Of a DNA stretch of 61,094 bases, positions 2,099 to 40,334 are shown piece by piece. The DNA is from a virus. Its lineage: Duplodnaviria > Caudoviricetes. The notes beneath the pieces are model-generated. The model searched no databases, was not told where the DNA came from, and saw nothing but the letters and a program-made list of their open reading frames with translations. The position numbers and the translations under genes were made by a program. The stretch covers positions 1 to 61,094 of the IMG/VR virus record IMGVR_UViG_3300020570_000012; one strand, given 5' to 3'. Numbering within the stretch: position 1 is the first letter of the stretch; each line of letters opens with the position of its first letter.

Positions 2099-3778
2099 TC
2101 AAAAAGTTCCCCCGTCAAGAGTTGATGTCCAATGTGGCTTATTAGTATATATGGTTGAAACGGTAGAGGGTGTTATTGAAAGATTTTGAATCGCTCCATT
2201 ATCACCTTCTTTTCTAAGATTATATGTATTTGTAAATGTACCCTCAACACCAATAAGACTTACTGAAACTAATGTTCCACCAGTTTCAACGATACCATAT
2301 GCACCACTAGTATCTTGTTTGATGATATCCCCAGCAGTTACTGAGATTGAAGATGGTAGTGATAAAGTAACTTTTGTGATAGCAGTTAATACCTGCTTAG
2401 ATGTGATTACTGGTGATGCTGGATTATTTGTGGAAGTCTGTAGTCCATCAGAATCAAAATATACAACACCGTGAGTGTTAAAATCACCAGTTTGGTAGTA
2501 AATACCCTTAACATCAAGATATCCTCTTGTCCCAGTTACATTTCCAGGTGATGTAATTGTAGCATCAGGAATATAAGTCCAAGATCTTGCTGTTGCAGCA
2601 CTGCCAACATTCGTGCCATCAATATAACCAAAAAATCCAGTCTTATTATTTGCCGTACCTACACCAGTGTTATAGTCAAAAGCAACACCACGATCAGTAT
2701 TAGTATCAAATGCGTGTGTAATTGTTAATTGTGTAGTTGTACTAATTCCAGCAGTTGTGGTTCCTTGAATTGTAATAATTTTTGTGGTACTATTATATGC
2801 TGTAATAGTCGTTATACCACTATTTGGTAATGAGGCACTACCTTGAATAATATCACCAGTATTGATACCAACTACAGAATCAATAGTAATTGTCGAAACA
2901 CCAGTTGCCACTGGCGACATAACAGTTCTAGTGCTTGTTACGTCACCGATAACAATTATTGGGTCATTAATTGATAAAACAGTCGAATTGACTGAAGTGG
3001 TTGTTCCGTCAACATGCAGATTTCCTTTAATAACAACTGTTCCATCACCACTTAACCCATCAGGATATGGATCAATGTATAGAGTATCACCACTACCAGG
3101 TAATGTTGATATTACATTATTTTCAATTTTAACAGAGTCAAATATTGATGCTCCGCTAATGTTTATCGATCCACCAACATTCAGATTTTTTTCAATTCCA
3201 ACACCACCCTCAACTACAAGAGCACCGGTGTCTTTATTGGTAGATTCAGTTATATCGCCAATATTAATTGCTACGCCATCGGCAAATGCCCAATCAGCAC
3301 CTTCTATTTCAAATCTATTATCAGTCGCTTCATCATATCTAAGCTTTACATCTTTATCATTACCAAAACTTAGATAATTATCATCAACAATATTAACTTC
3401 ACCAGTTCCATTTGGATCTAAAACAATATCACCGTCAGTGTTGGTTGATAAAATAGTATTGCCATCAAGACGTAAGTTATCTACGTTCCACTGATCTACT
3501 TTTCTATTATTATCAAGAACAGCAACTATACCACCATCACTATTTCTTGTATTTGAAACACCAGCAACAGTACCTGGTTGGTGCTCCATCATGGAGGTGT
3601 AATAATATCCACCTACTGGATTTACATTATTACCATCATCACCAACATAAACCCTATCTTTATATTGATTAAGACCGCCGTAACTTCCAATACCTGTTAC
3701 ATATGCTAATTCACCCCAATTTAGACTGGAAGGTTTGTTAGTACCTGAGGATCTTTTGATCCTAATAATACTTGCCAT
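2099..3778 (-). CDS. Virion structural / tail-fibre-like protein
   Basis: MASIIRIKRS...LNWGELA N-terminus, GALVVEGGVGIEKNLNVGG repeat and LDGGTF C-terminus, typical of cyanomyophage fibre-like proteins. Confidence 0.75.
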   Translation of the reverse strand: MASIIRIKRSSGTNKPSSLNWGELAYVTGIGSYGGLNQYKDRVYVGDDGNNVNPVGGYYYTSMMEHQPGTVAGVSNTRNSDGGIVAVLDNNRKVDQWNVDNLRLDGNTILSTNTDGDIVLDPNGTGEVNIVDDNYLSFGNDKDVKLRYDEATDNRFEIEGADWAFADGVAINIGDITESTNKDTGALVVEGGVGIEKNLNVGGSINISGASIFDSVKIENNVISTLPGSGDTLYIDPYPDGLSGDGTVVIKGNLHVDGTTTSVNSTVLSINDPIIVIGDVTSTRTVMSPVATGVSTITIDSVVGINTGDIIQGSASLPNSGITTITAYNSTTKIITIQGTTTAGISTTTQLTITHAFDTNTDRGVAFDYNTGVGTANNKTGFFGYIDGTNVGSAATARSWTYIPDATITSPGNVTGTRGYLDVKGIYYQTGDFNTHGVVYFDSDGLQTSTNNPASPVITSKQVLTAITKVTLSLPSSISVTAGDIIKQDTSGAYGIVETGGTLVSVSLIGVEGTFTNTYNLRKEGDNGAIQNLSITPSTVSTIYTNKPHWTSTLDGGTF

Positions 3779-22600: not shown

Positions 22601-25600
22601 GCACCAGTACCATCACCTGTTGCATTTAAATCAGGAGTAGAATAATATTCAGAACCCGTACTTAAAACTTGAACATCAATAATTCTACCATTTGAAACAA
22701 TAGGATTTAATTGAGCATTTTTACCATTCTTTAATGTGATTAAAGGTTTTTTATGTAGATTTAATGTATTTGATCCATATTCAGTTCCATTCTCATACAG
22801 ATAAGATCCTATAATCTCACCAGTGACGATTGGAGTGAATGTAAAATTGCCGGTAAAAGTTGACCCATAAGAAACATTGGCGTTGACTTCAATTGGTGGA
22901 TATTCGAAAATGTGATATCCAGATCCTACTGATTTAATATCAACGTATTTGCCTCTTGTAAGATCTGTGGTTACAGTAGCTCCAATTCCTACGTTAATTA
23001 ATCTAAATGAATCTGAGTCAATTAGATCTATCGAGTAATTGGTAGTAGTTGATAATCCTGAAATTGAGGTTCCAGTTGTTGAATAGAATACAATATCACC
23101 CGAAGAAAACCCATGATTCTTAAATGTAACAGTATTATATTCAGTAGAAATTCCTGATGGTTGGACTCTTAATTTTCTGTATTGATATCCAGATCCACCT
23201 GCTAAAACTTTTATACTTCTAAGAGTATTTTTTGATACAGTTCTAAATTTATGAATACCTGCAAATGAAGTTGAAGTTGAAAATCCAATTGTATTAATAC
23301 CAGCTAAGTAATCAGATCTTGTGTTAAAAAGTTTAATCGTTCTGGTATTAACAAATTTTGCGACATACTCATCGCCACTCACCAAAGTTCCAGTAGGAGT
23401 ATTTGAAATATCTCCAAAAGTTCCAACTAAAATAGGATTGTTTCCATTTTGATTGTAAATTACTCTTTCACCATCAGCAAAATTGTGGAACGTTGTGAAG
23501 GTAATAGTTTCGTCAGTTAAATCAACTCCACCACCAATAGTAAGTGCTCTACTATCAAAATCAACTTCTCTAAATCTTTCACCCATTACTGGTTCTAGGA
23601 TGCATCCAGATCCATTACCACCAGTTACAGTAACTGAAAGAACCTTATCAATATCAAAATCTTGTGGATCAACATAAACTGCTTTTACAGTACCACTAAT
23701 AATTGGATCAACAAGCGCAGTGACTCCTGTTCCAGTGGTAGATCCAGTGGAAATTGTAATTTTTGGAGGATTAACAACATCATAATCTTTACCAGAATTT
23801 AATACATCAAATTCCTTTATAGGTCCATAGTAAATTTTATCAAGTGATTCTGGACTAGAAATTTCAACACCATCAATTAAAATTCCAATTCCACCAATAG
23901 TATTATTAATCGATCTTCTCAAATCAGTGCCTGGATTTGAAGAAATCTTTTGAATTGGGAACTTTCTTAAAATCTTATTTGGCGATATTGATCTATCTTC
24001 ATGTTTTTTTAATGTAAATCTATGAATTCCAGATGTTGAATTCTCAGAAAACTTGACATATTCAGACCCACTTAAAAGTCCTTTCGAGGCATATAATCTT
24101 ATACTATTCGATGCAACTACTTTGACATAGTATTCAAATCCAGATACTAATCCAGAAAGTGGTTCATCAGAAGTATATACTACTATATCACCATCAATAA
24201 ATCTAACATTTGATGGGAATTTAATTATTGAATATGCCTGAGCAACATTATCATAGTCATCCAAATAAGTTGAAGATCCATTAGGTATAGAAGCATCTAT
24301 AATTTCATCATTGATTTGATACGAAGGTAAAGAATTTGATGCAACATAACCTAATTTATCACTATCGCTATAAACGTTTAAAATATTTGAAATATAATTG
24401 TTATTTCCCAACAAGAGTGGTACATTTAAACTACTCGATTTTTTAATTTTTCTTCGGATGTCATAAGACTGGGTTGAACTTGGTAAAAATCCAGAAATAT
24501 TACTTAGAATAACTTGGTTTAAAGCACTATTGATGTTGGTAACTACTGCATTTGCAGAAGCAATATTATTAGTATATGCATATAAAATATCAACAATATC
24601 ACCCTCACGTAAACTAGACTTATCAATCACACTCAACAGTGTAAAAGTTGATCCAGAAATATTTGATACTTGATATCTTGTGCTTGTATTGTAAATCCAA
24701 GAATTTGCAAATATTTCTTTATAAGTCCTATCTTCCGCTGGATTTTTAATTACTTCTCCAAGATTTTTAACCGTTAGTTCTTCACCCTCATCTACAAGAG
24801 AGATATCCCCAACCTCTTCAAATTCTGAAATAACACCTGTTATGCGAAGATCAACTCTTTTTGATATATCTCCATTTTCATAACCATAGATCGTTTCATT
24901 TGATCTAATGTCTGAGGCAATAGTTATTGTACTAGTAATTCCTGTACAACCAAAAAATTGATTTATACTCTTTGATGTATATTCGATTATATCATTTCCA
25001 CATATTAAAGTTCCTGTCTGCCCAAATCCAATTGTAGAATCAACAGGAATAATTGAAGATCCTACTGAAACTGATTCTAAAATTCTTGTTTTACCTGGAA
25101 TTGTAAAAATACCTTCAATTAGGTCTCTTTCATTATATCCTACAAATAATCCCAACTTGTAATATGTTTCATTATTTCTTGTAAAAACTTCAATATCAGA
25201 GACTGATGCATTTGTGTTTACATCTGTCGATTTAAATATAGTTTGACCTTCTAATTTAAAAGGATCTCCAGAAATATTTTTGGCTACAACAAGTTCTCTT
25301 CTAATATAATCGGCAGATGATGGTTTAATTAATCTACCTTCAAGATCTAAAACAATTGCATCTGCACCATATAAAACTTTAAATAAAATTTTAACAGACT
25401 CTTCAATACCTTTTGATTGGTAGAAGTTTCTTGCATGTTTAATAAAATTACCTACATCAAGATCAGAAACAAAATCATAATTTTCCAGTCCAGGAGTAAA
25501 TGTATACTTTAACTTTTTATAAAATTCTTGTAAGAATAAAACGCTTAAATTGATTACTTTTGAATTTTTGGTATGACTTGCTTCAGTTGTCTTGGAAAAA

Positions 25601-26040
25601 GTTAAACTTTGTTTGTTGACGTTATCATCAAAACTTGATATGCCAACATTGTTGTAGTTTGTAATTCCACTAAATCCACGAATACATCCAGTAAAGGTAT
25701 TTGTCGTAATACCACTGTAAGTGATAATTTCATTATCAATTTTTAGAAGTCCATATTCGGATGGAAATCCTTTTGTTGAGGTGACAGTAATAATTCCAAC
25801 AGAAGATGTTACATCATATGATAAAATTGTTTCTCCATTAATAACTTCTGGAACCAAATTATCAAGCTTTAAATACTGATCTAAATTTTCAACAATGTCT
25901 ACATTTCCACCTTGAAATTCTTGGGAAATGTAATATTGTTTGAAGAATTCAGTTGCTTTTGGAAAATCCGAAACTATAAATTCTGGAAGTTGACTCTCAA
26001 TAATTTTATTGATTTGTACTCTCTTCTCAAAATCTGACAT
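13657..26040 (-). CDS. gp7: Baseplate wedge initiator gp7-like giant protein (4127 aa)
   Basis: QLPEF...FFKQYY, FIKHARNFYQSKG, DNDYYQNLSYSIKS..HPAG; lies between gp6 and gp8; internal YHYH-like segment. Confidence 0.88.
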   Translation of the reverse strand: MSDFEKRVQINKIIESQLPEFIVSDFPKATEFFKQYYISQEFQGGNVDIVENLDQYLKLDNLVPEVINGETILSYDVTSSVGIITVTSTKGFPSEYGLLKIDNEIITYSGITTNTFTGCIRGFSGITNYNNVGISSFDDNVNKQSLTFSKTTEASHTKNSKVINLSVLFLQEFYKKLKYTFTPGLENYDFVSDLDVGNFIKHARNFYQSKGIEESVKILFKVLYGADAIVLDLEGRLIKPSSADYIRRELVVAKNISGDPFKLEGQTIFKSTDVNTNASVSDIEVFTRNNETYYKLGLFVGYNERDLIEGIFTIPGKTRILESVSVGSSIIPVDSTIGFGQTGTLICGNDIIEYTSKSINQFFGCTGITSTITIASDIRSNETIYGYENGDISKRVDLRITGVISEFEEVGDISLVDEGEELTVKNLGEVIKNPAEDRTYKEIFANSWIYNTSTRYQVSNISGSTFTLLSVIDKSSLREGDIVDILYAYTNNIASANAVVTNINSALNQVILSNISGFLPSSTQSYDIRRKIKKSSSLNVPLLLGNNNYISNILNVYSDSDKLGYVASNSLPSYQINDEIIDASIPNGSSTYLDDYDNVAQAYSIIKFPSNVRFIDGDIVVYTSDEPLSGLVSGFEYYVKVVASNSIRLYASKGLLSGSEYVKFSENSTSGIHRFTLKKHEDRSISPNKILRKFPIQKISSNPGTDLRRSINNTIGGIGILIDGVEISSPESLDKIYYGPIKEFDVLNSGKDYDVVNPPKITISTGSTTGTGVTALVDPIISGTVKAVYVDPQDFDIDKVLSVTVTGGNGSGCILEPVMGERFREVDFDSRALTIGGGVDLTDETITFTTFHNFADGERVIYNQNGNNPILVGTFGDISNTPTGTLVSGDEYVAKFVNTRTIKLFNTRSDYLAGINTIGFSTSTSFAGIHKFRTVSKNTLRSIKVLAGGSGYQYRKLRVQPSGISTEYNTVTFKNHGFSSGDIVFYSTTGTSISGLSTTTNYSIDLIDSDSFRLINVGIGATVTTDLTRGKYVDIKSVGSGYHIFEYPPIEVNANVSYGSTFTGNFTFTPIVTGEIIGSYLYENGTEYGSNTLNLHKKPLITLKNGKNAQLNPIVSNGRIIDVQVLSTGSEYYSTPDLNATGDGTGAILRPVINDGKITDVIVINSGIGYSSTNATIQVKPKGSGALFDVKVRDLTVNDAERYAAYSRLRTPKIFSSLNKNLVDNSLVYGIYGYSEDLATNYSDNGVSHSPIIGWAYDGNPIYGPYGYSNPDDVQSGVRIINPSYSLNTTKVSNRPSFSSGFFIEDFEYDGNGDLDRHNGRFCKTPEFPNGVYAYFAGVTTSIVSNKLEPLYPYFIGNTFKSSFIQENSYLDQSFDFNNSNLIRNTLPYKLNDKYANYDFLVEPYEVLPQVSVIESVKKGDVNDISIVDGGTGYKIGETINFDQEDTGGIGLRAEISELIGKNITQIETNFESYSPCVFVWSTDEVVSAHYRSGFNLIDNDTVLISGLSTSIINLSGSKKIGFTTETVGLAKTMNSYSSTPGGLIEDIFVSTRPTVSIGGSIFIRSDLGTETVRVLNDYNNGVLRVKRYASSGVAHTYGSSLNVISDRISIKSKSKIPLFESKNNDLVYFNAKNSVGVGTTPGGAVYKEFTIGVTTQTVSIPYRSIYLPNHPFKTGQRITFTKSDLAGVDSLIVGNDPSNLNTFQIPNTTTLTSDVYIISKGKDYVGLVTQVGLTTNSEGLYFYSDGSNNSEYLLQTNYNQVTGQVDRVVTTISVAQTHGLSEGDTIKLTVSPNTVVGLGTTSALTVAFNEDEKKLLINPIGINSSQINITTNTITIADHGYNTGDKIFYNSTQVASGLETGSYYVIRDSSSQFRLAETRYETVPPNQKVVNIVGTGASIHTFALINPSIDVVKNSTIKFNLGDSSLSGYKLKIFKDAKFTDEFISTSDSGDFNVIGIGTVGFGTAALSIEYTENLPSKLFYALEKSGYISTSDKDVANNSQINYVNSEYNGTYNIFGVSTDSFSISPSKVPTVLKYTVDQTDKLEYSTKSSTAINGTIGKVKIISEGFNFKKLPKFANIESENGQNANVLAISTSIGKIKNVRIKDIGYEYPSDKTLTPEAFISPIINLDNLDTIDQIDIVFGGSRYLTAPDLLLWNDKTKTVIDNSSLVAITPSGAISEVKQIAPIYGLKSDLHKIISINNSNGVGISSIVTGNAGVATCTLATPILGFSSPLFADGDEIFVEGIDLIDGSTGTGYNSENYDYRFFKIQSYVNSNPAVLTFAVVDELGAGLSTNPGIAKTFQSGYASIINKKYYPEINIIKKRAKFASNEQLFVNVGSGFAEQDLFVSAIRDEFIKVNGSYSLKKGDQIKGKISGVIADVISIKENKSRFKVDYSSKQNIGWRNDTGKLSEDYQVTPDNDYYQNLSYSIKSPITWDKSSSPVNSIIHPAGLKNFADVGIISATKASVGLSGTTNSIAVLDIIEERRVDVINNFDNVVDYDTRTNPEQSKFLKIQNKKLTDYTECRTNRVLIHDDISNRFSSRGFEDPFVEIEEIDAIDTHVRYTIQVVDPDTLYSQITELVLQTSTLDSILFEKYTAYTDELLGEFSANVDDSGRKTLLFTPTNRFDRDHDIKILKKTFAAPSTGIGTYAFGSINLIGSSIIGISTVGTANSIRTIAQFSNTNFNGLFANIEVTNTLSKEVNYIEAALDFDGSNTHLSEYYFDTKTQSYSSSSIGLVTAIYDSTAGIVSFRVQNEENNVIDVRANIVGFAATSAGIGTYRFLVSGQPAGSERSAKLESTVGVGTTSIVVGTFDLNLVTSVSSIVRVSSGSSSAIHQVSILNDTENVTIVPGPFSPANNVTGLGTFGGQIFGDKFYLNFYPDSSNTNTSVQGFNEVLYTYSDFDNEPLQLNYGNTNQRLFLSAYDSINGTRANKVNFSLKHEGVPIYKKIFDPSDTTTVDFATGIFTIRNHFFNTGEELTYNPRSTFIGVGQSAMGIGATANYLGIVTDKLPEKVYPIALTPDTFKLATQKSYAALGIAVTFTSAGLGNAHELDMSKKLSKSVISLDGIVQQPITFTPISHKLQYNSGGISVGIATFNLSGISSIQPRDILKIDDEYMKVVEVGVSSNTGGNITGIINASGIATFPTVSVVRASVGSTATTHSDGATVQVYRGSFNIVGSEIWFADPPKGNTRARRDASNLPYVRAQYAGRTFLRSNYDTNMVFDDISDQFTGIGKTYTTTVEGINTTGVSIGNGILFINGVFQTPTTINNAGNNYEFVNDNVAGISSVVFTGITSTDGTYIKSDFDINQNQLPRGGLIVSLGSTPGLGYAPLLGAKVRAVLDGSGSIVSITGISHTGPGQSISTASYNNQTGIIEITTVTDHNFVGGDRIKLVGLGFTCPSGAGIVSYFPSRGLDYSYDIVGILSAKSFTANVGTSTLPHSYIGLGTVFPWYDLNYGSGYRDPVSIAVTDSNHTGVAASIRATVGAGGTLAFTVVTAGSGYVEPYIRTPEPIYENLPVIGVSRVGVGSTTQTGSNLLMNIKIGPSPSTVGIGSTLFVVESFQISRPGYAFQVGDVFKPIGLVTAKDYAQPLDEFKLEVVETYQDFFSSWSFGEMNYIDSVSTLQNGSRTRFPLYYNGQLLSFEVDPNNPLSGAINLDAVLLIFVNGVIQEPSYAYRFFGGTSFEFTEPPKSSDKVDIFFYIGQDGVDISLIDVNETIKIGDDVFVKTSPFYPSISSQERDRTIVDIIGSDTVETDLYVGTGINETYYRPIEWIKQKNDKYIKGDIVYKTRDSLEPYVYPTAKIIGDLTSGSSNIFVDNAQFFNYEENNYGVTITSVDGLIVQGTDPISAGFTATVSAAGTISAITITNAGLGYSTNVPIKISNPTVGVGTFALESVGLGVGIGIGTTATAIANVSGGKVVSVTITNPGFGYTIAPNLIVEVPSATTETITGIANVQGFSGIITGISTTTGTGGHPLALKINFRANASDANDLQTGYPILVYNTTVGTGVTSVNSSDSSIVGIGTSFLDNVYIVNSKTNSGPNAEIICNIKTNTNIVGIATTGSTTLPLGNISWGRLYNFAIRPNPISIGVTGLVVDAGLSTFPTIQRRTFGLRNSGAIRKLSNLS

Positions 26041-31250: not shown

Positions 31251-32003
31251 TTATTCAATAATTAAGTTCCAAATCATTGTTTTTTTACATCTAGAACTTG
31301 CAAGATTTGAAGCGATACGACTTACGGTTCTATTTTTATTTTTCATTCTCATATTTACAAAGTCATAATTCTCTTTTACCCATTCTCTAAGATTATATCC
31401 TTCCCATTCCTTTCCACTTAGAGTGTCTATGATTTTATAATATTTTTTATTTCCTTCTGATGCATTATCAAATCTGCTGATCCACCTCAGATTTTTGTAA
31501 TGATTGTTTTTCTTATTCTGATCAATATGATCTATTTCAGTATAATTTTGAGGATTTGGTATAAAGGTTTCTGCAACTAATTGATGAATACTTCTTTTAA
31601 TTTGTTTATAGTTTCCATTCTCATCATATATTGAAATGTTTATACATTCATAACGTAATTCTGGATATTTTGGATGTCCTCTAAAAGCAGGTTTTAGATA
31701 AATTAAACCATATTCATTTACTTTACCGTATTTTCCAGTTCGATCATATTTTCCAGGTTTGCGATATGCTCTACCATCTTCTGTAATATAATAACCAGGA
31801 TACTGAGTTTCCTTCATATCCTCAGGAATTTTTATTTCTGGATAATTATAAGTCACTTTTTCTTTTGGTTTACCTATGGGAATATTCCAATTTTCTCTTG
31901 GTTTTTTCAAGTAAACCCATTTTCCATCTTTTTTGATGAATTGTGCGCCTTGCTTATTTGTTTTAATTGTTCCTTCTGGAAGTTTCTGTTTTCCCATGAT
32001 CAA
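31251..32003 (-). CDS. HNH homing endonuclease
   Basis: IHQLVAETFIPNP...IDHIDQNKKNNHYKNLRWIS; NUMOD4-like YPGYYITEDG upstream. Confidence 0.88.
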   Translation of the reverse strand: MIMGKQKLPEGTIKTNKQGAQFIKKDGKWVYLKKPRENWNIPIGKPKEKVTYNYPEIKIPEDMKETQYPGYYITEDGRAYRKPGKYDRTGKYGKVNEYGLIYLKPAFRGHPKYPELRYECINISIYDENGNYKQIKRSIHQLVAETFIPNPQNYTEIDHIDQNKKNNHYKNLRWISRFDNASEGNKKYYKIIDTLSGKEWEGYNLREWVKENYDFVNMRMKNKNRTVSRIASNLASSRCKKTMIWNLIIE

Positions 32004-32224
32004 CCTTGTACTGATAAATTTTTTGCGAAAAATTTTTTGATTTTGAATGTATTTGAATTTATGATTTTGAAATGCCTTTATGATTTATCGCGCTTTCGTA
32101 ACACTTTGTAGACTCAGGGATCCATTGCGATTTAGAACGACCCCCCCCCTTATACCCCATCACGCGCCGCGCCCGACCCCCGCACCCCGCGGGGGACCTG
32201 CATCCTCACGAACGCAGAGGGGGG

Positions 32225-32398
32225 TCACCCCCGCCCTGCGTGTGCCTCAGAGTACTGGGCGGCGATGGCGGTAGCGGGCACTCCCCAATGGATGTACTGA
32301 GAGGGGCGGGATCCGTTCTTCAGTTGATCAGCGCGGGAGATCCACTTGATCTGGCGGGTCTGGAGGTCAGAGCACATGGCAAGGGGGAAGCGGGTCAT
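32225..32398 (-). CDS. Early-region small hypothetical protein
   Basis: Probable start MTRFPLAMC, just downstream of its own TACAAT box. Confidence 0.65.
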   Translation of the reverse strand: MTRFPLAMCSDLQTRQIKWISRADQLKNGSRPSQYIHWGVPATAIAAQYSEAHAGRG

Positions 32399-32448
32399 CG
32401 GTCTGAGGTGTGAACTGAGAGAATTGTAGAGCACGAAGGGGGCAGGGG

Positions 32449-32637
32449 TCAATACCCCAGCCACGAAAGGAACTCACCCGCATCCACGGGACCGAATCGG
32501 GCGGTCACCCCATAGTCGGTTCGGAAGTCATCCCACAGACCATGATCCTTTGCTGCCTGGCAGGCGGCGGACCAGCGGATGCACCCGTTCTCATCGGCGC
32601 AGTTCCAAACGATGGCGGGGAAGGTGGAGCAGTGCAT
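32449..32637 (-). CDS. Early small hypothetical protein
   Basis: 62 aa; own repeat promoter; ends FLSWLGY. Confidence 0.7.
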   Translation of the reverse strand: MHCSTFPAIVWNCADENGCIRWSAACQAAKDHGLWDDFRTDYGVTARFGPVDAGEFLSWLGY

Positions 32638-32669
32638 GGGGTTGTCTGAACTGAGAGTATTGTAGCAGA

Positions 32670-33005
32670 TCAGGGGTTGAAGCGGTCGGCGTAGACCTGT
32701 TCCAGGCGGTATGCTTCGGATTCGCGGGAGTCGCTGTCCAGGTTGCCCTCCAGAGTTTGGCGGCAGTGGATCAGTTCGTGAATCAGGGTCACCACGTATT
32801 CAGAGCGGGGCAGGTTGCGCTCCACTTCCACCAGGAACTCCAGGTCATCCTCCTGCTGCTGCCATCCTACCACACCCTCAGAGGTCAGGCGCTTATGATG
32901 AACCGTGATCGCCGCGGCCCCCAGCAGCGGTTCCTGATCAAGCATGAAGCGGTAGATCTGCTGTGCCAGGCGGGGGCGTTGCTTCTGTCCTGAGGTGAGC
33001 AGCAT
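32670..33005 (-). CDS. HEXXH zincin-like small protein
   Basis: TLIHELIHCRQ...RESEAY. Confidence 0.65.
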   Translation of the reverse strand: MLLTSGQKQRPRLAQQIYRFMLDQEPLLGAAAITVHHKRLTSEGVVGWQQQEDDLEFLVEVERNLPRSEYVVTLIHELIHCRQTLEGNLDSDSRESEAYRLEQVYADRFNP

Positions 33006-33044
33006 GGGTCCGTTGCGGTTGAGAGTATTGTAGCAGGTCGCGGG

Positions 33045-33212
33045 TCAGTACCCGTTCAGGAAGTCTGCCAGTGCCTCACGGTACTCTGCCTCCGTCTCAA
33101 AGGTGCGGGCACCGATCGTGCGGGGGTAGGTTGCCTTCGGAGCAGGAGCGTTGCTGGGCTCCTTACCCTGAGAGCGGATCTGCTGAGCGTAGGGGTTGGA
33201 AGCGATGGTCAT
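33045..33212 (-). CDS. Early small hypothetical protein (55 aa)
   Basis: MTIASNPYAQQIRSQGKEP...TFETEAEYREALADFLNGY, translated by hand; own promoter. Confidence 0.7.
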   Translation of the reverse strand: MTIASNPYAQQIRSQGKEPSNAPAPKATYPRTIGARTFETEAEYREALADFLNGY

Positions 33213-33282
33213 GAGTCGTTTCGTTTGAACTGAAGTCAGTATAGGGCCAGGATGGGGCAGATCGCCGCGGCCAGTGGACAGT

Positions 33283-33513
33283 TCAGCGGGCGTCCCTTTC
33301 CTCTTGCGTCACCCCACCGTTCCACCCCTGATCCTCCAGGTAGTATTGCAGTTCATAGGATGATGGGGAGAATCCAGGACGGCGGAGCATCTCAGCGATC
33401 ACAGCATCATGGCAGGCATCATTGCCAGAGCAGTTGGCGCGGTTCTCCAGATCCTCCAGTTGCATGTCGGTCAGTTGGGAGAGCAGGTCAGGGTTGGTGC
33501 CGAAGTCGATCAT
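33283..33513 (-). CDS. Early small acidic hypothetical protein
   Basis: 76 aa; own repeat promoter. Confidence 0.65.
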   Translation of the reverse strand: MIDFGTNPDLLSQLTDMQLEDLENRANCSGNDACHDAVIAEMLRRPGFSPSSYELQYYLEDQGWNGGVTQEERDAR

Positions 33514-33545
33514 GGGTCCGTTGCTGTTGAGAGTATTGTAGCAGA

Positions 33546-33719
33546 TCAGCGGTTCGAACCGCGCTCAAATCCGTTGATAAAGGACTGGAGCATCGTGGCG
33601 CCCAACTCCTGCCAGAACTGGCGGTCGGTGGCAATGTCTGCCGCGGCCTTTACCCAATCCTGCGGGGTTGCCTCAGCAATGGCGCGTTGCTCATCAGGGG
33701 TGAGATCGAAGCGGGTCAT
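33546..33719 (-). CDS. Early small hypothetical protein (57 aa)
   Basis: MTRFDLTPDEQRAIAEATPQDW...; flanked on both sides by GAGAGTATTGTAGCAGATCA. Confidence 0.7.
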   Translation of the reverse strand: MTRFDLTPDEQRAIAEATPQDWVKAAADIATDRQFWQELGATMLQSFINGFERGSNR

Positions 33720-33755
33720 CAGAGTGCCTTGCGGTTGTGAGAGTATTGTAGCAGA

Positions 33756-33965
33756 TCAGTTGGCGAACCATGCCTCATGGGCAAGGTCGGATGCCAGTTC
33801 TTCCAGGTTGTCAGCGGTCACCCGCTCAACATAGAAGTCCAGGTGATCAGGATCCAGGCGGTCCAATCCGCACCCGTAGAGATCCTGTGCCTGTGCCTCT
33901 GCCAGGTCGATCAGTTCCTCTGCCAGTTGGCGGCGGATCTCAAGGGCGTCGATGGGGCAGGTCAT
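33756..33965 (-). CDS. Early small acidic hypothetical protein
   Basis: Probable start MTCPIDAL after a TATACT box. Confidence 0.65.
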   Translation of the reverse strand: MTCPIDALEIRRQLAEELIDLAEAQAQDLYGCGLDRLDPDHLDFYVERVTADNLEELASDLAHEAWFAN

Positions 33966-34033
33966 GGGTCGTTTGCTGATGAGATCAGTATAGAGGCAAA
34001 AGGGAAGGGTCGTCCCCCTCCGTTGTGCCACTA

Positions 34034-34201
34034 TCAGAATTGGACTTCGCTCAGGGTCGGGGCGCTGATGGCGGCATAATGGGCAGCAGCGTCAGCGATG
34101 TTCTCCTGCTCCACTGAATCGGTGATAGAGTCCAGGATGCTCAGCAGTTCGGCACCGTTGGCGGCGCGGTTCAGCAGGGCAGCAGCAAGGTCAGCGGTCA
34201 T
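34034..34201 (-). CDS. Early small hypothetical protein
   Basis: MTADLAAALLNRAANGAELLSILDSI. Confidence 0.65.
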   Translation of the reverse strand: MTADLAAALLNRAANGAELLSILDSITDSVEQENIADAAAHYAAISAPTLSEVQF

Positions 34202-34239
34202 GATGGAAGGAAGGTAGAAGGTCAAAGGGTGGGGGAGAA

Positions 34240-34416
34240 TCAGGCAGCGATCAGCAGGTCATTCTCCCAGCGGGCGGCGCTCAGGATCTCATCATAGATT
34301 CGATCCGCGACCTGATCAACGTAGCGGCGCTCATCTGCTTTCATGATCGCTGCTTTGCACTGGGCGGCGATCTCATCGATGCTGAGGGCGCGATCGGTGG
34401 CAGGGTTGTAGCGCAT
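34240..34416 (-). CDS. Early small hypothetical protein (58 aa)
   Basis: MRYNPATDRALSIDEIAAQC...WENDLLIAA, translated by hand; own promoter. Confidence 0.65.
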   Translation of the reverse strand: MRYNPATDRALSIDEIAAQCKAAIMKADERRYVDQVADRIYDEILSAARWENDLLIAA

Positions 34417-34484
34417 GGTTCGGTTGAGTGAACTGAGAGAATTATAGAGCAGTTTAGGGTCGGTGCTCAGGACCTTGTGCCAGT

Positions 34485-34712
34485 TTAGAGGTCGTCCATC
34501 ATCTCACAGATCTCCAGACCGTCGATCACGGGATCATCCCAGCGGCAGCCGTCTGGGGTCTCCTTGCTGCCACACTCCCAGAGTTGGGCTACCAGGTCCT
34601 GGTAGTTGCGGCAGCGGCGAGCGGCATGGTAGATGCTCTCATCGTTCTGAATCCAGAGGGCGACGTTCCAGGTCTCCCAGTTTGCCCATCCGTTGAAGGT
34701 TGCGGTGCTCAT
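34485..34712 (-). CDS. Conserved phage early hypothetical protein
   Basis: NGWANWETWNVALWIQNDE...ETPDG motif, widespread in phages. Confidence 0.75.
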   Translation of the reverse strand: MSTATFNGWANWETWNVALWIQNDESIYHAARRCRNYQDLVAQLWECGSKETPDGCRWDDPVIDGLEICEMMDDL

Positions 34713-34745
34713 CGGTTTCGTTTGAACTGAAGTCAGTATAGAGGG

Positions 34746-34910
34746 TCAGCGGGCGATCAGGTCGGCAGCAGTGGACAGTGCGTCTGCTGTCACAACCCGC
34801 ACAGGGCGGATCGGTTCCCAGAGCAACCATAGCAGGGTGCCACCGATCACAAGGCGCAGCATGGTAGCACGGTGAAACTCAGGGGAACGGGAGCGGGTCA
34901 GGGTTCGCAT
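34746..34910 (-). CDS. Small membrane protein (54 aa)
   Basis: MRTLTRSRSPEFHRATMLRLVIGGTLLWLLWEPIRPVRVVTADALSTAADLIAR, translated by hand. Confidence 0.6.
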   Translation of the reverse strand: MRTLTRSRSPEFHRATMLRLVIGGTLLWLLWEPIRPVRVVTADALSTAADLIAR

Positions 34911-35071
34911 CATCGTTCCAGTTGTGCCAGGGAGGACGGAGCGATGTGAGAGGGGGAACCACAGGAGCGGTAGAAGTCTACCATACGATCCGCCTCCTCT
35001 TTACTGGTGAACCACTGAGACCGCCACTCACAGGCATTGTAGGGGGTCTGGTAACGGACTTCGAAACGCAT
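34910..35071 (-). CDS. Early small hypothetical protein
   Basis: MRFEVRYQTPYNACEWRSQWF...MVDFYRSCGSP. Confidence 0.7.
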   Translation of the reverse strand: MRFEVRYQTPYNACEWRSQWFTSKEEADRMVDFYRSCGSPSHIAPSSLAQLER

Positions 35072-35112
35072 TGGGGTCGTTTGAACTGAGGTCATTCTAA
35101 GGGCAGCGCCGC

Positions 35113-35277
35113 TCAGTGGCGGTCGCTGATGTGCCAGTTGGTGGATTGGACCTGAGGGGGAGCGATCTCATCACGGCGCACCGCCTGGCGGTATGCTTCC
35201 TCTGCTGCCACCTTAGCGGTGTACTCTGCCATCACGCTGGCGATCAGTTCGTCGTGAGTCATCTTGGTTTGTTTCAT
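35113..35277 (-). CDS. Early small hypothetical protein
   Basis: Start at 35277 or 35262; ends NWHISDRH. Confidence 0.65.
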   Translation of the reverse strand: MKQTKMTHDELIASVMAEYTAKVAAEEAYRQAVRRDEIAPPQVQSTNWHISDRH

Positions 35278-35382
35278 GAGATCAGTATAGGGCATCAGGG
35301 GGGCAGTGGGCGGTTTGGTGGACGGTTCGGGAACTGGCACAGGGTGCCTTGCTGGGGGTCGCTGGGGCCCTATACTGAGGTC

Positions 35383-35445
35383 ACAAGCGAAGGAGGGGCG
35401 GGGTAGCCCTGAGGACGAAAAAGGTCGTCACGGGGGCAGCCTTGA
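35383..35445 (+). ncRNA. Candidate structured small RNA, copy 1
   Basis: GAGGGGC-GGGGTA-GCCCT-GAG-GACGA-AAAAGG-TCGTC-AC; + strand TATACT at 35371-35376; paralog at 38607 with a compensatory pair; strand not certain. Confidence 0.45.
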
Positions 35446-35463
35446 AATAATAGAAAAAAGAAA

Positions 35464-35497
35464 GTATAAAAAAAGGGGGCGGATGTTGCCCCCTTAG
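35464..35497 (-). terminator. Rho-independent terminator
   Basis: Minus strand AAGGGGGC-AACATCC-GCCCCCTT followed by a T run, downstream of the 35505 ORF. Confidence 0.8.
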
Positions 35498-35504
35498 GTT
35501 AATC

Positions 35505-36071
35505 TCAGTTCAGCGAAAGTTCATCCAGGTTGCTGATGCTGATGGTGCTGAACTCTTGCAGAACCTTTACATCGTTAATGTCAAAGTACAGGTCCACTGC
35601 TTCAACAATGCCGTTGTATTGTGCCTGCAAAACGTGGTTAATCTTGGTGCGTTCTTTGGCACTCACAACATCATCGAATCCCTGAACTTCGCCTGCTTTG
35701 TTGAAGCGGGGTGCCACACGGGGAAGCACACTCACAAACAACACTTTTTCCATTTGAATGTTAGGAGCGAACATCAAACGTGCCGCTTCGCCTACACTGG
35801 TGTTAGCGTAGTTTTTAATATTTTTGTTGATGTTGCTGTTAAGTGCTTTTCCAAGAATAGCAACCTTAAGTTCACCATTAACAAACCCAGCAATATCAAT
35901 GTCAAAGGTGCCACCGAAACCATCAACGGGAAGTTGGTATTCATACTGCCAGGTATATTCTGCCCAATCAGGATTTGCATTCAGAACCTCATCCAGCAGC
36001 ACTTTATGAAACTCATCAGTACGCTTGGAAGAACGAACGTTCTGAAAGGAAGTCTCGAGGAAGGTTTCCAT
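35505..36071 (-). CDS. PD-(D/E)xK restriction-endonuclease-like protein
   Basis: FDIDIAGF...KVAILGK...SNINKNIKNY...GE resembles a type II REase core; probable start METFLE. Confidence 0.5.
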   Translation of the reverse strand: METFLETSFQNVRSSKRTDEFHKVLLDEVLNANPDWAEYTWQYEYQLPVDGFGGTFDIDIAGFVNGELKVAILGKALNSNINKNIKNYANTSVGEAARLMFAPNIQMEKVLFVSVLPRVAPRFNKAGEVQGFDDVVSAKERTKINHVLQAQYNGIVEAVDLYFDINDVKVLQEFSTISISNLDELSLN

Positions 36072-36171
36072 GTTAAGTGAAGAGAATTGTTTGTGGGGGG
36101 TCGGTTTCCTTCCCCCCGATGACATTAGTATGGCAGAGGGTGGGGGTCACCGCAAGGGGGTGTGTGCCACT

Positions 36172-37071
36172 TCAACGATTGGCACACTGAAAGCGTCCGC
36201 TGTTGAAGTTAGCGTTAGAAAAGACCTCACGATTGACCAGTTTGAACATACCAAACTGATTCACCAGAACGTAACCCTCAGAGTCGATTCTGTTGCCGTA
36301 GAGATAAGCGGCAGGACCATCATTGCGGCAGATGAACAAACAGTCATCTTTGATAGACTTCACCAATTCCCACAAACGCAGCAGGTTAGCATCACAATCG
36401 AAATCCTCAGGGTTGATCTCTTCACCAGCACGAATGCAGGCGTTGATCTGTTGTTTGATCTTTGCTGCCTCTTTATCACTCACGAACTGTGCAGTGGTTG
36501 CCATTTGACGGGCGAACTTACACACCTCTTCAACATCAGCGAACGAATCCTGATTGTGCAGGATGTATGCATTCGGTTTCACGAACTTCACCGTTTCAGT
36601 ATCAGTCCAGGTGCTACGGTCAGGGAATGCCTGAGCATCACGAAGATCACTCTCAGCATAATAGCAAGTGTGAGGGGCGATGATAATTTTCTGGGAAACT
36701 ACATCGGGGAACTGATACGTAATGGTGTTGGATTTGTATTCAGTATCACCACCGAACCCGATGAAGTCTGCCTGATAAATTGTCTCAAAGCGGGGCAGAT
36801 AATCAAAGCACGAATGCAGAATGTCTGCCACGTTGCCTTCATAGTGTTGATCAATCTCATCGTGAGAGTGAGCAATACGAATCTTCTTTTTGTTGAATAC
36901 TGCTTTCGTGCCCACGAAGAATGTACCCGTTGCAGGATCAATCCCCCACACAATTGCAGGGGCGCCATCAATCTTGACGCTCAGATTGCCAGGCGTCACG
37001 AACCAATCCAGGACAGAAAGATCACCCGTGAGGATGGTATCTTCGGGGTGCTCGAGGTGTGTGTTTTTCAT
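36172..37071 (-). CDS. DUF6267-like protein with ligase-type nucleotidyltransferase motifs
   Basis: HLEHPED, SVKIDGAPAIVWG (KxDG), YQADF, EGYV, FKLVNR; probable start MKNTH. Confidence 0.7.
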   Translation of the reverse strand: MKNTHLEHPEDTILTGDLSVLDWFVTPGNLSVKIDGAPAIVWGIDPATGTFFVGTKAVFNKKKIRIAHSHDEIDQHYEGNVADILHSCFDYLPRFETIYQADFIGFGGDTEYKSNTITYQFPDVVSQKIIIAPHTCYYAESDLRDAQAFPDRSTWTDTETVKFVKPNAYILHNQDSFADVEEVCKFARQMATTAQFVSDKEAAKIKQQINACIRAGEEINPEDFDCDANLLRLWELVKSIKDDCLFICRNDGPAAYLYGNRIDSEGYVLVNQFGMFKLVNREVFSNANFNSGRFQCANR

Positions 37072-37153
37072 GCTGTTAGTATGGCACGGAATCGGGGGGT
37101 CTGGGCGGTTTGGTGGACACTTGCCCAACTGGCACAGGGCGGCCGCTTCATGG

Positions 37154-37181
37154 TATAAAAAAGGGGGGCACGAATGCCCCC
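37154..37181 (-). terminator. Rho-independent terminator
   Basis: Minus strand GGGGGCA-TTCG-TGCCCCC then CTTTTTTATA. Confidence 0.85.
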
Positions 37182-37188
37182 GAATTCT

Positions 37189-37536
37189 TTATGCAAACAT
37201 GAACCCATCTTTGAATTCATACTCATTGTAAACAGGCGAAGTTCCCGCCTGTCCAACGAACTTATGAACGAACCAATTCCAGTTGCGTTGAAATACACAT
37301 TCGCCCTTGATTCCATGCTCTTGAAGAATCGCATTCAGGCGGGATTTGGTGGTGTTGGACTGATGCCCACCATCAAAGATCTGCACGAAATCATCACCAA
37401 TGGTGGCAATGTGGTTGCCGTAAAGAAACACTTTCGACTCGTTAGTTTCAGAATCGAATTGAACAGAAGTGTTGTCTTTTTGCCAGTTCTGATTGTTCAG
37501 AATGGCGGCGTTCATTTCACGTTCGATCTTACGCAT
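37189..37536 (-). CDS. Conserved phage early protein
   Basis: MRKIEREMNAAI...LYGNHIATI...TTKSRLNAIL...VFQRNWNWF. Confidence 0.75.
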   Translation of the reverse strand: MRKIEREMNAAILNNQNWQKDNTSVQFDSETNESKVFLYGNHIATIGDDFVQIFDGGHQSNTTKSRLNAILQEHGIKGECVFQRNWNWFVHKFVGQAGTSPVYNEYEFKDGFMFA

Positions 37537-37607
37537 GGGTTGAATCGCGTTGACAAAGGTAGTATGGACCAGATCGGGGGGCATTGCAACCCCCCTTGTG
37601 CCACTTC

Positions 37608-37796
37608 TCAGACTGTCACATCCTCCAGCAGTTCGGGATTGTATTCTGTAACCTCAGCGATCAATTCTTCATCAGAATAGGACGAAAGATTGTCCCTCAA
37701 AGTATCATAAACGAAACACTCCATTGTTTTCATGTCCATCCCATCTAGAATCTGCTGAGCATAATCAGCGATGAGTTCTTCGCGGTTGATTGTCAT
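37608..37796 (-). CDS. Small acidic hypothetical protein
   Basis: MTINREELIADYAQQILDGMD...EYNPELLE. Confidence 0.7.
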   Translation of the reverse strand: MTINREELIADYAQQILDGMDMKTMECFVYDTLRDNLSSYSDEELIAEVTEYNPELLEDVTV

Positions 37797-37797
37797 T

Positions 37798-38064
37798 TCA
37801 GTTAGCGTAGAGTGGGAGTTTCTTACGGAGACTGATTGCATCGTCAATCATCTCACCAACCTGTTCGTAAATGTAGGACGAACCACCTACATCAGCGAGC
37901 ACATCTTGCGTGAAGAGTGAAGAAAAATACACTTCCTGTTCGTCTTCATCATTCTCAAACACATCATGTTGAGTGAACACGAATGCAGCACAGGGAGCGT
38001 TCTCACCTTGACTCTCAATCATTGAGTTGATAGAGTCACGAAGTTCAGAAAGTGTGCGGAACAT
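37798..38064 (-). CDS. Small hypothetical protein
   Basis: 88 aa; IESQGENAPCAAFVFTQHDV. Confidence 0.7.
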   Translation of the reverse strand: MFRTLSELRDSINSMIESQGENAPCAAFVFTQHDVFENDEDEQEVYFSSLFTQDVLADVGGSSYIYEQVGEMIDDAISLRKKLPLYAN

Positions 38065-38192
38065 CAGTAATCGTAGTTTGCGTTCAGGTACTCATTGAGA
38101 TCGAACTTCTCACCTTCACGAAGTTCGGGAATGTCCAGGTCGAAAATCTCACCTGGCATGTCTTGAATCTCTTGCCAGAGTTCATCAAACAT
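38064..38192 (-). CDS. Acidic micro-protein (42 aa)
   Basis: MFDELWQEIQDMPGEIFDLDIPELREGEKFDLNEYLNANYDY; TGATG overlap with next gene; palindrome promoter upstream. Confidence 0.7.
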   Translation of the reverse strand: MFDELWQEIQDMPGEIFDLDIPELREGEKFDLNEYLNANYDY

Positions 38193-38271
38193 GGTTTGTC
38201 TCTCAGGAACGAATGTAATTTATCAGGGGGAAGATCGGATTTCAACCGATCTTGTGCCACTTGCTCAACCG

Positions 38272-38475
38272 TCACACCTCACTCATAACTTTAAGACGAC
38301 GCATGATATCATAAATTTCCATATCATCCATATCGACTTCGTTCATATCAACGGGAGCGAATTCTTCGAGGTTAATATTACCATTTGCATAGATCGGAGC
38401 ATAATACAACTCATCACCATCTTCCTGACTCAAAGTATACACACAACCGTGATTGGTGGAAGTGAGAAAAATCAT
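38272..38475 (-). CDS. Small acidic hypothetical protein
   Basis: Probable start MIFLTSTNHGCVY. Confidence 0.65.
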   Translation of the reverse strand: MIFLTSTNHGCVYTLSQEDGDELYYAPIYANGNINLEEFAPVDMNEVDMDDMEIYDIMRRLKVMSEV

Positions 38476-38596
38476 CGGAAATCTCAGGAACGAAACCAAC
38501 ATAACCCGCCACGTGGCAGATCACAACCCCCCTTGTGCCAGTTCTAGAACTGTCCACTAGATGCCCCACCAGGTCCGCTGCCGTGCTATCTTATAA

Positions 38597-38660
38597 GAAA
38601 TCCAATGAGGGGAAGGGTATCCCTGCTGACGAAAATACATCGCCACTCCCCCTGCCATAA
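38597..38660 (+). ncRNA. Candidate structured small RNA, copy 2
   Basis: GAGGGGA-AGGGTA-TCCCT-GCT-GACGA-AAATACA-TCGCC-AC; + strand TGcTATCTT at 38584-38592; strand not certain. Confidence 0.45.
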
Positions 38661-38667
38661 AATATTC

Positions 38668-38697
38668 ATTCTCAATAAGAAACCCCTTATTGAGAAT
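38668..38697. repeat. Perfect 12-bp inverted repeat
   Basis: ATTCTCAATAAG-AAACCC-CTTATTGAGAAT. Confidence 0.85.
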
Positions 38698-38730
38698 AGG
38701 GGATCTTGTGCCAATTCGAGAACTGTCACA

Positions 38731-38883
38731 TTAATCGAACGGATCGAACTCTTTCACCCTACAATGGAGATCTTCATTCGGTTCGAGTTGTAATAGTTCT
38801 CGCCAATTAATATGATCTAGATCTAGATCATCATAACACATAATGTCTAGTGTAACCTGTACAATGCGTTTCTGTGCTAACAT
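38731..38883 (-). CDS. Small hypothetical protein (50 aa)
   Basis: MLAQKRIVQVTLDIMCYDDLDLDHINWRELLQLEPNEDLHCRVKEFDPFD, translated by hand. Confidence 0.65.
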   Translation of the reverse strand: MLAQKRIVQVTLDIMCYDDLDLDHINWRELLQLEPNEDLHCRVKEFDPFD

Positions 38884-38915
38884 GACATCTAGATGTGTAT
38901 GTGTACTAGATTATA

Positions 38916-39068
38916 TCATGCATAATGACGATACGCAAGTGATTCATAATCTTGCCCATCTCGTGCATAATCCTCGTCGAGATCCTGTGCATCTAGTGCA
39001 TAATACTCGTCGAGATCCGCGTAATCATTGCCTGTGTATGTGTAGTCGAGATCGTAGTCGTCGTACAT
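38916..39068 (-). CDS. Asp/Tyr-rich micro-protein (50 aa)
   Basis: MYDDYDLDYTYTGNDYADLDEYYALDAQDLDEDYARDGQDYESLAYRHYA; TTGCAT-N17-TACAAT promoter at 39099-39127. Confidence 0.6.
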   Translation of the reverse strand: MYDDYDLDYTYTGNDYADLDEYYALDAQDLDEDYARDGQDYESLAYRHYA

Positions 39069-39219
39069 AAGCTCGTCGAGATTTGTGAACGCTATCGTAT
39101 TGTAGCATAAAACTCGACGAGATGCAATCTAGACTAGATGTAGAGCTCGTCGAGAATCATACCAGTATATATACGGTCTCGTCGAATTTTATGTGCATCT
39201 CGACACATATCTCGACTAG
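38973..39219. repeat. Periodic CTCG(T/A)CGAG palindromic repeats
   Basis: Copies at 38973, 39006, 39072, 39113, 39146; variants at 39042, 39178, 39211. Confidence 0.85.
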
Positions 39220-39327
39220 ATTCTATCACGAACTTATAAGAATGTCAAGGCATTATGAGTCTTGTGTGGGTCTGGGGAAATTTCGGCGGGTGTGTGGGTT
39301 GACAACTGCGCGTTCTTATGCTAACGT
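39220..39327. promoter_or_regulatory. Back-to-back divergent sigma70-type promoters
   Basis: Minus: TTGACA(39243-48)-N17-TAGAAT(39220-25); plus: TTGACA(39299-304)-N17-TAACGT(39322-27). Confidence 0.6.
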
Positions 39328-39563
39328 GCTAAGCCTGCATAAGATCTGAGTATTACTTATAAGATCTGGGTATTCTCAACACAATACCTAATTGATTCTC
39401 AACAAACAATAATTATTGAGAATGTTATAAGAAACACAAATATATTTTTGTTAATAATAGGTTAAATCTTCATTGTATACTATACAACACAAAATCTGAT
39501 ACACCATACAATAAATCATATATACCATACAATATAACACAGTATAACACCTTACAATATACA

Positions 39564-40334
39564 ATGGAAAGAGGAATCATTTACCTTATTCTCAACAAGC
39601 AAACAGGTGAAAAATACGTCGGAAACACCACACTTGCAATGAACAAAGAATGGGTACACCACATAGATCGTTCTAAAAGAATGTCCTCAGAACCCTTACA
39701 TAAGGCATTCAGAAAGCATGGTGTGCATAACTTTATGATTAAAGAACTGGATGAGTATGATAATACCTGTTTAGAAAGTAAGTTAAATGAATGGATAGAC
39801 AAATATAAACCTGAATACAATCCTGCTCCTGTTAATGCAGAAAAAACGGTAATCCCAATGCAGGAAAAGCGGGAACCCGTAGGGTTGAGCGATAGCGAAA
39901 TACCTAAACCTAAAAGAACATATAAATCATCACCACACCTCATACAATGGAATGAACAGAATAGAGGAGATGGTAAACACTTTGGTATTAAGATAAGAGG
40001 TAAGAACTTAGATACTGGTTTATGTACTGACTATGAAAATGCAAGAGTCGCAGCAGAACAGGTCACAGGTAATCCGCGAAACAATTCGAACATTCTACTT
40101 GCTGCCAAAACTGGTAGAACTGCATACGGATACAAATGGCAATTATTAGAAGAGAAGAAGAATAAAAGATCGGTATTTGGTGTCAATAAAAAAACGGGGT
40201 TGATTGGTCCCCGTTATGAAAGTATTAATGCCGCTGTTCGTGCCTTTGAGTGTACTGATAAACACAGCATTCTCAAAAGTTTGAAGAATCCTGGTAAGTA
40301 TAGTTGGAAGAGTTATTATTGGTTCTATGGTTAA
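39564..40334 (+). CDS. GIY-YIG homing endonuclease with NUMOD1-like C-terminal repeats
   Basis: GIIYLILNKQTGEKYVG, LHKAFRKHGVHNF, YKPEYN; YENARVAA..TAYGYKW and YESINAA..YYW repeats. Confidence 0.85.
   Translation: MERGIIYLILNKQTGEKYVGNTTLAMNKEWVHHIDRSKRMSSEPLHKAFRKHGVHNFMIKELDEYDNTCLESKLNEWIDKYKPEYNPAPVNAEKTVIPMQEKREPVGLSDSEIPKPKRTYKSSPHLIQWNEQNRGDGKHFGIKIRGKNLDTGLCTDYENARVAAEQVTGNPRNNSNILLAAKTGRTAYGYKWQLLEEKKNKRSVFGVNKKTGLIGPRYESINAAVRAFECTDKHSILKSLKNPGKYSWKSYYWFYG

Follow-up and report, generated by a model that had tools for sequence, protein, structure and literature searches.

In HK022, the put RNAs are present in two copies per genome, directly downstream of early promoters. Among T4-like phages, promoter-early stem-loop (PeSL) cassettes have been described (PMC4122927, PMC2839356); they are presented as promoter–terminator motifs that serve recombination (PMC4122927). 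The word 'cyanophage' does not occur in the available text of that 2014 account (PMC4122927), and the available text of another gives few such motifs in S-PM2 (PMC4503421). According to the accessible part of the S-CREM1 paper, the non-coding RNAs known from cyanophages are wcaG, manA, glnA, PhotoRC-II, abiF and CfrI, with the glnA (glutamine) riboswitch, wcaG, manA, PhotoRC-II and abiF listed for cyanophage S-CREM1 and others (PMC9964418). Here we describe an element that occurs twice on the + strand of a 61,094-nucleotide (nt) stretch of viral DNA, IMG/VR record IMGVR_UViG_3300020570_000012 (positions 1 to 61,094; hereafter the window). An original prediction, made from the bare sequence, had put the two copies forward as a candidate new small RNA family, and that proposal appears to be borne out: the element is conserved, covarying and non-coding, has its own promoter and has no match in Rfam. 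We conclude that it probably defines an RNA family of T4-like cyanophages that has not been described before, whose members are probable small non-coding RNAs.

The element shares with the known cyanophage RNA motifs that they are short structured RNAs of T4-like cyanophages, but most of those motifs are leaders that regulate co-directional genes in cis, whereas no co-directional gene lies downstream of the element. The likeness to PeSLs, judged from the available descriptions, is that a stem-loop or palindrome and a sigma-70-type early promoter are repeated among the small variable genes of a hyperplastic region; nine palindromes in the window are each followed by promoter-like hexamers, and both elements lie inside such units. 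PeSLs as described there consist of a promoter and a terminator only, whereas the element here is a conserved stretch of about 70 nt with a covarying hairpin. Infernal searches against Rfam 15 (4227 models) gave no match at the gathering threshold anywhere in the window, and none at E values up to 10 in the 6 kb around both copies. Stretches of 131 and 126 bases gave weak matches of 9–17 bits, against the 40–95 bits required; nearly all fell on flanking terminator hairpins, and none was read as a family match. The window contains none of wcaG, manA, glnA, PhotoRC-II, abiF and CfrI, where these are represented in Rfam, and ARAGORN found no tRNA or transfer-messenger RNA genes in it. A literature search, made largely without subscription journals and supplements, found no description of this RNA, and the words promoter and intergenic are absent from the accessible text of the S-SRM01 genome paper (PMC8557907).

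The aligned members share one layout. It begins with a TAnnnT −10 hexamer, often preceded by a weak −35 and, farther upstream, by a palindrome. About 7 nt past the −10 comes a leader starting with ACAA, followed by a hairpin of 5–6 base pairs (bp), an A-rich linker of variable length and a conserved, single-stranded tail, UCGCCAC-N4-CCUGC-N4-AAAUA; in all, about 70 nt after the −10 are conserved, including the covarying hairpin. Stems are wholly different among subfamilies, whereas the loop, RGGGU(A/C), is constant. The original prediction had pointed to a C-G to A-T swap in this stem between the two copies in the window. The swap is real and was the first sign of far wider covariation. Two of the five stem pairs covary already in the first 59 distinct sequences. 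The main test of the hairpin took 94 matches (93 distinct) in an alignment fitted by the model; there, 99.8% of 464 hairpin cells pair and changes on both sides occur at all five pairs. Double-change cells numbered 115, against 29.8 ± 3.8 in shuffles, with none of 500 shuffles as high; sliding the partner by 1–3 columns, as a control, left only 47–61% of cells pairing. Against the hairpin it must be said that this alignment was fitted to the structure being tested and that the sequences are related, so these counts overstate independence. Despite these cautions the hairpin is strongly supported, and the divergence of the stems among subfamilies leaves little doubt about it. The element as such is almost certainly a real, conserved and structured one.

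Members are numerous in viral metagenomes. Pattern scans of IMG/VR, each anchored differently, found 39, 43, 57 and at least 119 stretches, the first of them with the two-copy consensus pattern. Among the matches listed, 146 distinct 78-nt members from 117 sources remained after removal of duplicates and one false positive. Covariance model R1, built from the first 52 sequences, recovered further homologues with covariation: it made 94 matches in 72 sources, with E values from 7e-23 to 3.3e-9 and none from 3.3e-9 to 1. Two copies were present in 22 of these 72 sources, on the same strand in all 22, as in the window, and the complete or near-complete records carried 1, 1, 4, 2 and 1 copies. The record with four, a complete 207-kb sequence (G003), has them within 2.8 kb (184140–186931); one of these runs against the others and lies 60 nt from the next, the sole mixed-orientation case observed. 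Two copies are present in S-SRM01, a cultured phage from a freshwater reservoir, and one each in DSL-LC03, a cultured phage from a lake, and in the marine Prochlorococcus phage P-SSM2 (model R2, E = 2.3e-7); P-SSM5 was matched by blast only, and no feature is listed under the matched stretch. The site of the element in the window, S-SRM01, DSL-LC03 and P-SSM2 is an unannotated gap between opposite-strand genes. On these matches, the family occurs in freshwater and some marine cyanophages. A host origin was considered and set aside: an 18-base pattern gave 8 matches in bacterial and archaeal genome contigs, in unrelated taxa and none with the family flanks, which is chance level by estimate. 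The 400-nt gap in P-SSM2 also has, at 3105–3290 of L185, two further palindromes and two further TATAAT boxes; the first of these is followed by a different hairpin, CTTAGG...CCTAAG, and a second, unrelated small transcript may arise there.

The original prediction had drawn the element with two hairpins. The second is not a conserved helix: its pair A23–N36 is non-standard in 48 of 59 distinct sequences, RNAalifold did not predict it, and its 5′ arm is missing from several subfamilies, for example in S-SRM01 copy 2. The family, as the alignment has it, is one conserved hairpin with a conserved single-stranded tail, not two hairpins. Two copies directly after early promoters, together with the two-hairpin description, had suggested a likeness to the HK022 put RNAs. 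A put-type cis antiterminator was rejected on two counts. The second stem-loop is not conserved, one of its pairs being unpaired in 48 of 59 sequences and the helix absent in subfamilies, and the neighbours in the window, S-SRM01, DSL-LC03 and P-SSM2 are on the other strand, leaving no co-directional operon behind the terminator. The invariant GGG of the loop is complementary to the equally invariant CCU of the tail, so that a pseudoknot between them would show no covariation. Two other structures were tried and dropped. A hammerhead-like core was suggested by the type 1 linker, which resembles part of one; a required base varies, helices are missing and there is no Rfam match. Pairing of the variable tail segment with the terminator arms looked, in loci compared by eye, like a coincidence of G runs and C runs.

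The strand is indicated by the promoters and by the closing base pair of the hairpin. The −10 boxes of the window copies are those of the original prediction; they precede the element by 16 nt in copy 1 and by 14 nt in copy 2, and each lies 29 nt past its palindrome. Across 142 members a TAnnnT −10 lies at a fixed distance, the commonest hexamers being TATAAT (26), TATCTT (25) and TATACT (22). A promoter score of at least 8 of 12 was reached on the + side in 66 of the 142, against 5 on the reverse strand and 13 in shuffles, and full-consensus promoters are found at two divergent loci, L011 and L051. Conservation starts at the base of the expected transcription start. In the model-fitted alignment 67 sequences close the hairpin with G-U, 18 with G-C and 7 with C-G; the + strand is favoured because the G-U pairs would be A-C mismatches on the minus strand. 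Originally the strand had been left uncertain, on the ground that G-U pairs support either; promoters and closing pair together settle it for +, and the element is very probably expressed as an RNA of that strand.

The 3′ end is less sharply drawn. Immediately after the tail, a hairpin and then a T-rich stretch can be read from the sequence itself in L068, L075, L079 and DSL-LC03. Over 142 members the downstream hairpin is of the minus type in 41, works in both directions in 19 and is of the plus type in 10; another 54 carry a hairpin with neither a T nor an A run, and in 18 there is no hairpin. At L011 (4178–4230) and L051 (about 2831–2880), three tandem 13-nt repeats of the GAGTTATGGCATT type follow the RNA, not a terminator hairpin. 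Contigs from four lake or aquatic metatranscriptome runs cover the neighbouring genes over 32000–40000 and leave the element bins almost uncovered; small RNAs, strand and transcript ends are invisible in such contigs, and this cover weighs neither way.

The best explanation as a whole, which we think on balance probable, is an early small RNA made by the host polymerase and acting in trans; taken by itself, the claim that the RNA is free-standing and trans-acting is quite possible, if short of probable. The two elements would be paralogous genes for a short non-coding RNA of about 70–120 nt, transcribed early by host RNA polymerase from a sigma-70-type promoter on the + strand, opposite all neighbouring early genes. 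The RNA would begin with an unstructured ACAA leader, continue through the 5–6-bp hairpin, the A-rich linker and the single-stranded tail, and end close to, or at, the convergent gene's terminator hairpin. Most likely it would act in trans, with the hairpin loop as a recognition or stability element and the C-rich tail as the working surface, which would either base-pair to G-rich stretches of target mRNAs or bind a protein. In general layout it is like those trans-acting small RNAs of bacteria and phages that have a 5′ hairpin, a single-stranded seed and a terminator: it would be short, with its own promoter, structure on the 5′ side, a conserved stretch left unpaired and a hairpin at the end. 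Unlike these, most members are missing a canonical T-run terminator on their own strand.

Several observations weigh against this explanation. The hairpin that follows the element is, for the most part, a terminator of the minus strand, both window copies included, and the 3′ end of the + RNA is therefore undefined in most members. A simple consensus promoter scan called neither of the window's + promoters, for which the support is comparative in kind. All-against-all column scans on both strands found no further covarying helix. The single-sequence minimum-energy fold of copy 1 (−24.4 kcal/mol, z = −3.4) replaces the conserved hairpin with a long-range helix, in which the tail pairs with the hairpin's loop and 3′ arm; this is permitted by the GGGG-GCAGC segment of its tail, a minority form with GCAGC replacing CCUGC. 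Finally, the covariance model at E values up to 1 found no member in Syn9, S-PM2, P-HM2, S-CRM01 or P-SSM4. As no member was found in any of these five cyanomyoviruses, the RNA is not a general requirement of cyanomyoviruses, and since the same tool detected positives elsewhere, the distribution is patchy. The type 1 tails are a separate observation: they come as GGGG-GCAGC (a minority, including window 35432–35440) or CCCC-CCUGC (most), the two forms having complementary bases at five positions, with intermediate combinations also occurring; column scans found no covarying partner for this two-form segment.

A rival reading is a leader of antisense or convergent transcription that works in cis: the nascent hairpin and tail, not a free RNA, would act on the polymerase or the convergent gene, whether by antitermination-like read-through, by transcriptional interference or by antisense shut-off of the upstream early gene. 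As the downstream hairpin is usually without a + strand T run, antisense read-through is plausible; the element begins a few bases past its promoter and faces the convergent gene's 3′ end, and copies flank an early-gene cassette. We nevertheless consider such a leader unlikely. In the window, S-SRM01, DSL-LC03 and P-SSM2 no + strand genes lie downstream to gain from read-through, the hairpin and T-rich stretch in L068, L075, L079 and DSL-LC03 read as a + strand terminator, and interference alone does not need a strictly conserved single-stranded tail.

A protein-binding decoy, which has a similarly small chance of being correct, would use the invariant loop and tail to bind a host or phage protein (a nuclease, a regulator or a defence sensor), titrated by abundant early RNA. 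This proposal overlaps the trans-acting small RNA that we favour, both being trans-acting RNAs. In its favour, a stem that varies beneath a constant loop is typical of protein or tertiary-contact recognition, and the proposal is in keeping with the 1–4 copies per genome and the strong promoters of some members. An element working at the DNA level is decidedly improbable. It might be a mobile promoter and stem-loop recombination cassette of the hyperplastic region, since the region has repeated palindrome–promoter units and small open reading frames (ORFs) and is PeSL-like in the terms of the available account (PMC4122927), or an R-loop-primed replication origin made of a promoter and an unwinding element, for which the type 1 G-rich transcript followed by an A-rich tract could be cited. 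The G-U pairs and the full compensatory change in the stem indicate RNA and not duplex DNA, however; PeSL or origin function leaves the invariant loop and tail unexplained, and the A-rich tract is missing from many members.

Least probable is a messenger for a micro-peptide of about 11–13 residues in the frame ending at the TAA of the AAATAA motif: several type 1 substitutions fall at third codon positions, the stop is often retained and a Shine-Dalgarno-like AAGGAGG precedes the type 1 hairpin, yet the start codon is not conserved (AGG ACG in window copy 1, ATG in others), four type 1 sequences have an in-frame TAG, type 2 copies, offset by 1 nt, lack the stop, AAGGAGG is missing from other subfamilies, and in the conserved 75 nt of 140 sequences the best frame is open in 86 and ATG is present in at most 88 in any frame. 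Minus frames are open in just 63–72 of the 140, and the + ORFs over both copies have no PHROG match. Coding in two + frames and one minus frame had been entertained for a third-position pattern and was dropped, the wider set being without a conserved start, stop or frame. A small protein gene or leader peptide fell for want of a conserved start codon or open frame. A type I toxin–antitoxin antisense RNA was likewise rejected; the minus frames have no conserved start, and one of them has a stop in L063. The original prediction had taken the element to be non-coding because the overlapping + ORFs would read it in different frames. That argument does not hold, as ORFs 35306–35497 and 38535–38660 both enter it as GAG GGG and diverge in frame only past the 1-nt indel by which copies 1 and 2 differ. 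The conclusion itself stands on the other grounds given here: by these comparisons, the element is non-coding.

For the early, trans-acting small RNA that we favour, a more specific role can be suggested, tentatively and as something we regard as doubtful. The original prediction had offered protein sponge, antitoxin-like and anti-defence functions as possible roles. In freshwater Synechococcus phages and marine Prochlorococcus phages such as P-SSM2, the invariant loop and C-rich tail may capture a conserved host component, for instance a protein of defence or RNA decay, or else the regions in which translation starts on a set of host mRNAs. If true, this would be an RNA-based device for host takeover or counter-defence, and T4-like cyanophages would have their first defined trans-acting regulatory RNA. 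Much of the picocyanobacteria of oceans and lakes is killed by cyanomyoviruses, whose regulatory RNAs are almost uncharted; the present family is abundant in viral metagenomes and covaries clearly, and is unannotated in the records of S-SRM01, DSL-LC03 and P-SSM2. Because P-SSM2 with Prochlorococcus NATL2A, and S-SRM01 with its Synechococcus host, can be cultured, the family is directly testable. The covariance model can be used to annotate such gaps, and the family draws attention to the palindrome–promoter units that organise the early hypervariable region.

Both copies lie where the original prediction had placed them. A degenerate two-copy consensus, allowed up to three mismatches, found exactly these two sites in the window and none in 100 shuffles. 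Their parts are given in Table 1.

Table 1. Positions of the two copies, their parts and the associated signals in the window
Feature	Position	Strand	Details
Imperfect palindrome, GTGCCA-N10/11-GTCCAC type	35318–35341		between divergent promoters
Copy 1 promoter	35349–35376	+	−35-like TTGCTG 35349–35354, 16-nt spacer, −10 TATACT 35371–35376
Copy 1 RNA core (leader, hairpin, linker, tail)	35383–35451	+	5′ end predicted at ACAA, 35383, from −10 spacing; cmsearch R1 91.7 bits, R2 75.6 bits
Copy 1 conserved hairpin	35395–35410	+	arms 35395–35399 and 35406–35410, loop GGGGTA 35400–35405
Copy 1 second hairpin of the original prediction	35414–35429	+	perfect pairing here; helix not conserved in family
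Copy 1 conserved tail	35425–35451	+	minority variant TCGTCAC-GGGG-GCAGC-CTTG-AAATA
Intrinsic terminator of upstream minus-strand gene 35505–36125	35473–35495	−	likely also 3′ boundary or stabiliser of copy 1 + RNA
Palindrome upstream of copy 2	38535–38557		orientation opposite to 35318 site
Copy 2 extended −10	38584–38592	+	TGC TATCTT; TATCTT is the −10 in 25/142 members
Copy 2 RNA core	38599–38666	+	predicted 5′ end about 38599; cmsearch R1 80.2 bits, R2 83.3 bits
Copy 2 conserved hairpin	38609–38624	+	arms 38609–38613 and 38620–38624, loop AGGGTA
Copy 2 second hairpin of the original prediction	38628–38644	+	
Copy 2 conserved tail	38640–38664	+	majority form TCGCCAC-TCCC-CCTGC-CATA-AAATA
Terminator-like hairpin of upstream minus-strand gene 38731–38883	38667–38698	−	14 pairs

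The palindromes beside the two copies belong to a set of nine imperfect ones in the window (35318, 36164, 37113, 37598, 38254, 38535, 38708, 43915 and 47960), of the type GTGCCA, 10–11 nt and then TGGCAC or GTCCAC. At 37598 and 38535, for example, a −35-like TTG hexamer begins 8 nt past the TGGCAC half and is followed by a −10. Family members in P-SSM2, S-SRM01 and many IMG/VR loci are preceded by the same palindrome. The original prediction had seen it as acting bidirectionally; it is instead a motif that recurs immediately before many early promoters, and a candidate binding site for a dimeric regulator of those promoters.

The window, a T4-like cyanomyovirus fragment, contains gp6- and gp8-like baseplate genes, and its DNA matches 319 phage records, nearly all of Synechococcus or Prochlorococcus phages; the IMG/VR completeness estimate for the record is about 28%. 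Nearly all of its genes are on the minus strand. Each copy lies, as first described, in a gene-free gap between minus-strand genes with PHROG matches, which are clear for 35113–35340, 35505–36125 and 38731–38883 and weak for 38272–38502. Both elements fall within a stretch of small early-type genes at 32–38 kb that has a G+C content of 47–59%, against about 30–40% in the remainder. This G+C-rich island (32000–38000) is dense with small minus-strand ORFs, and we do not regard it as chimeric assembly because DNA runs contain up to 96% of the sampled words from 32000–40000.

Three further features of the window were observed. Amid the baseplate genes are two giant minus-strand ORFs of 2535 (4455–12062) and 4127 residues (13657–26040). 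About 900 nt downstream of copy 2, a homing-endonuclease-like gene on the + strand (39564–40334) stands amid minus-strand genes, with a weak Pfam GIY-YIG match and a match to phrog_3404 'HNH endonuclease' (E 2e-33). Between 32396 and 35301, repeated minus-strand units (repeat families D1, D3, D4, D7 and D10) have a −10 box (TACAAT, TATACT or TATAAT) 6–21 nt before an ATG, with no Shine-Dalgarno sequence; the ATG at 35277 coincides with the expected transcription start, which suggests leaderless early messages.

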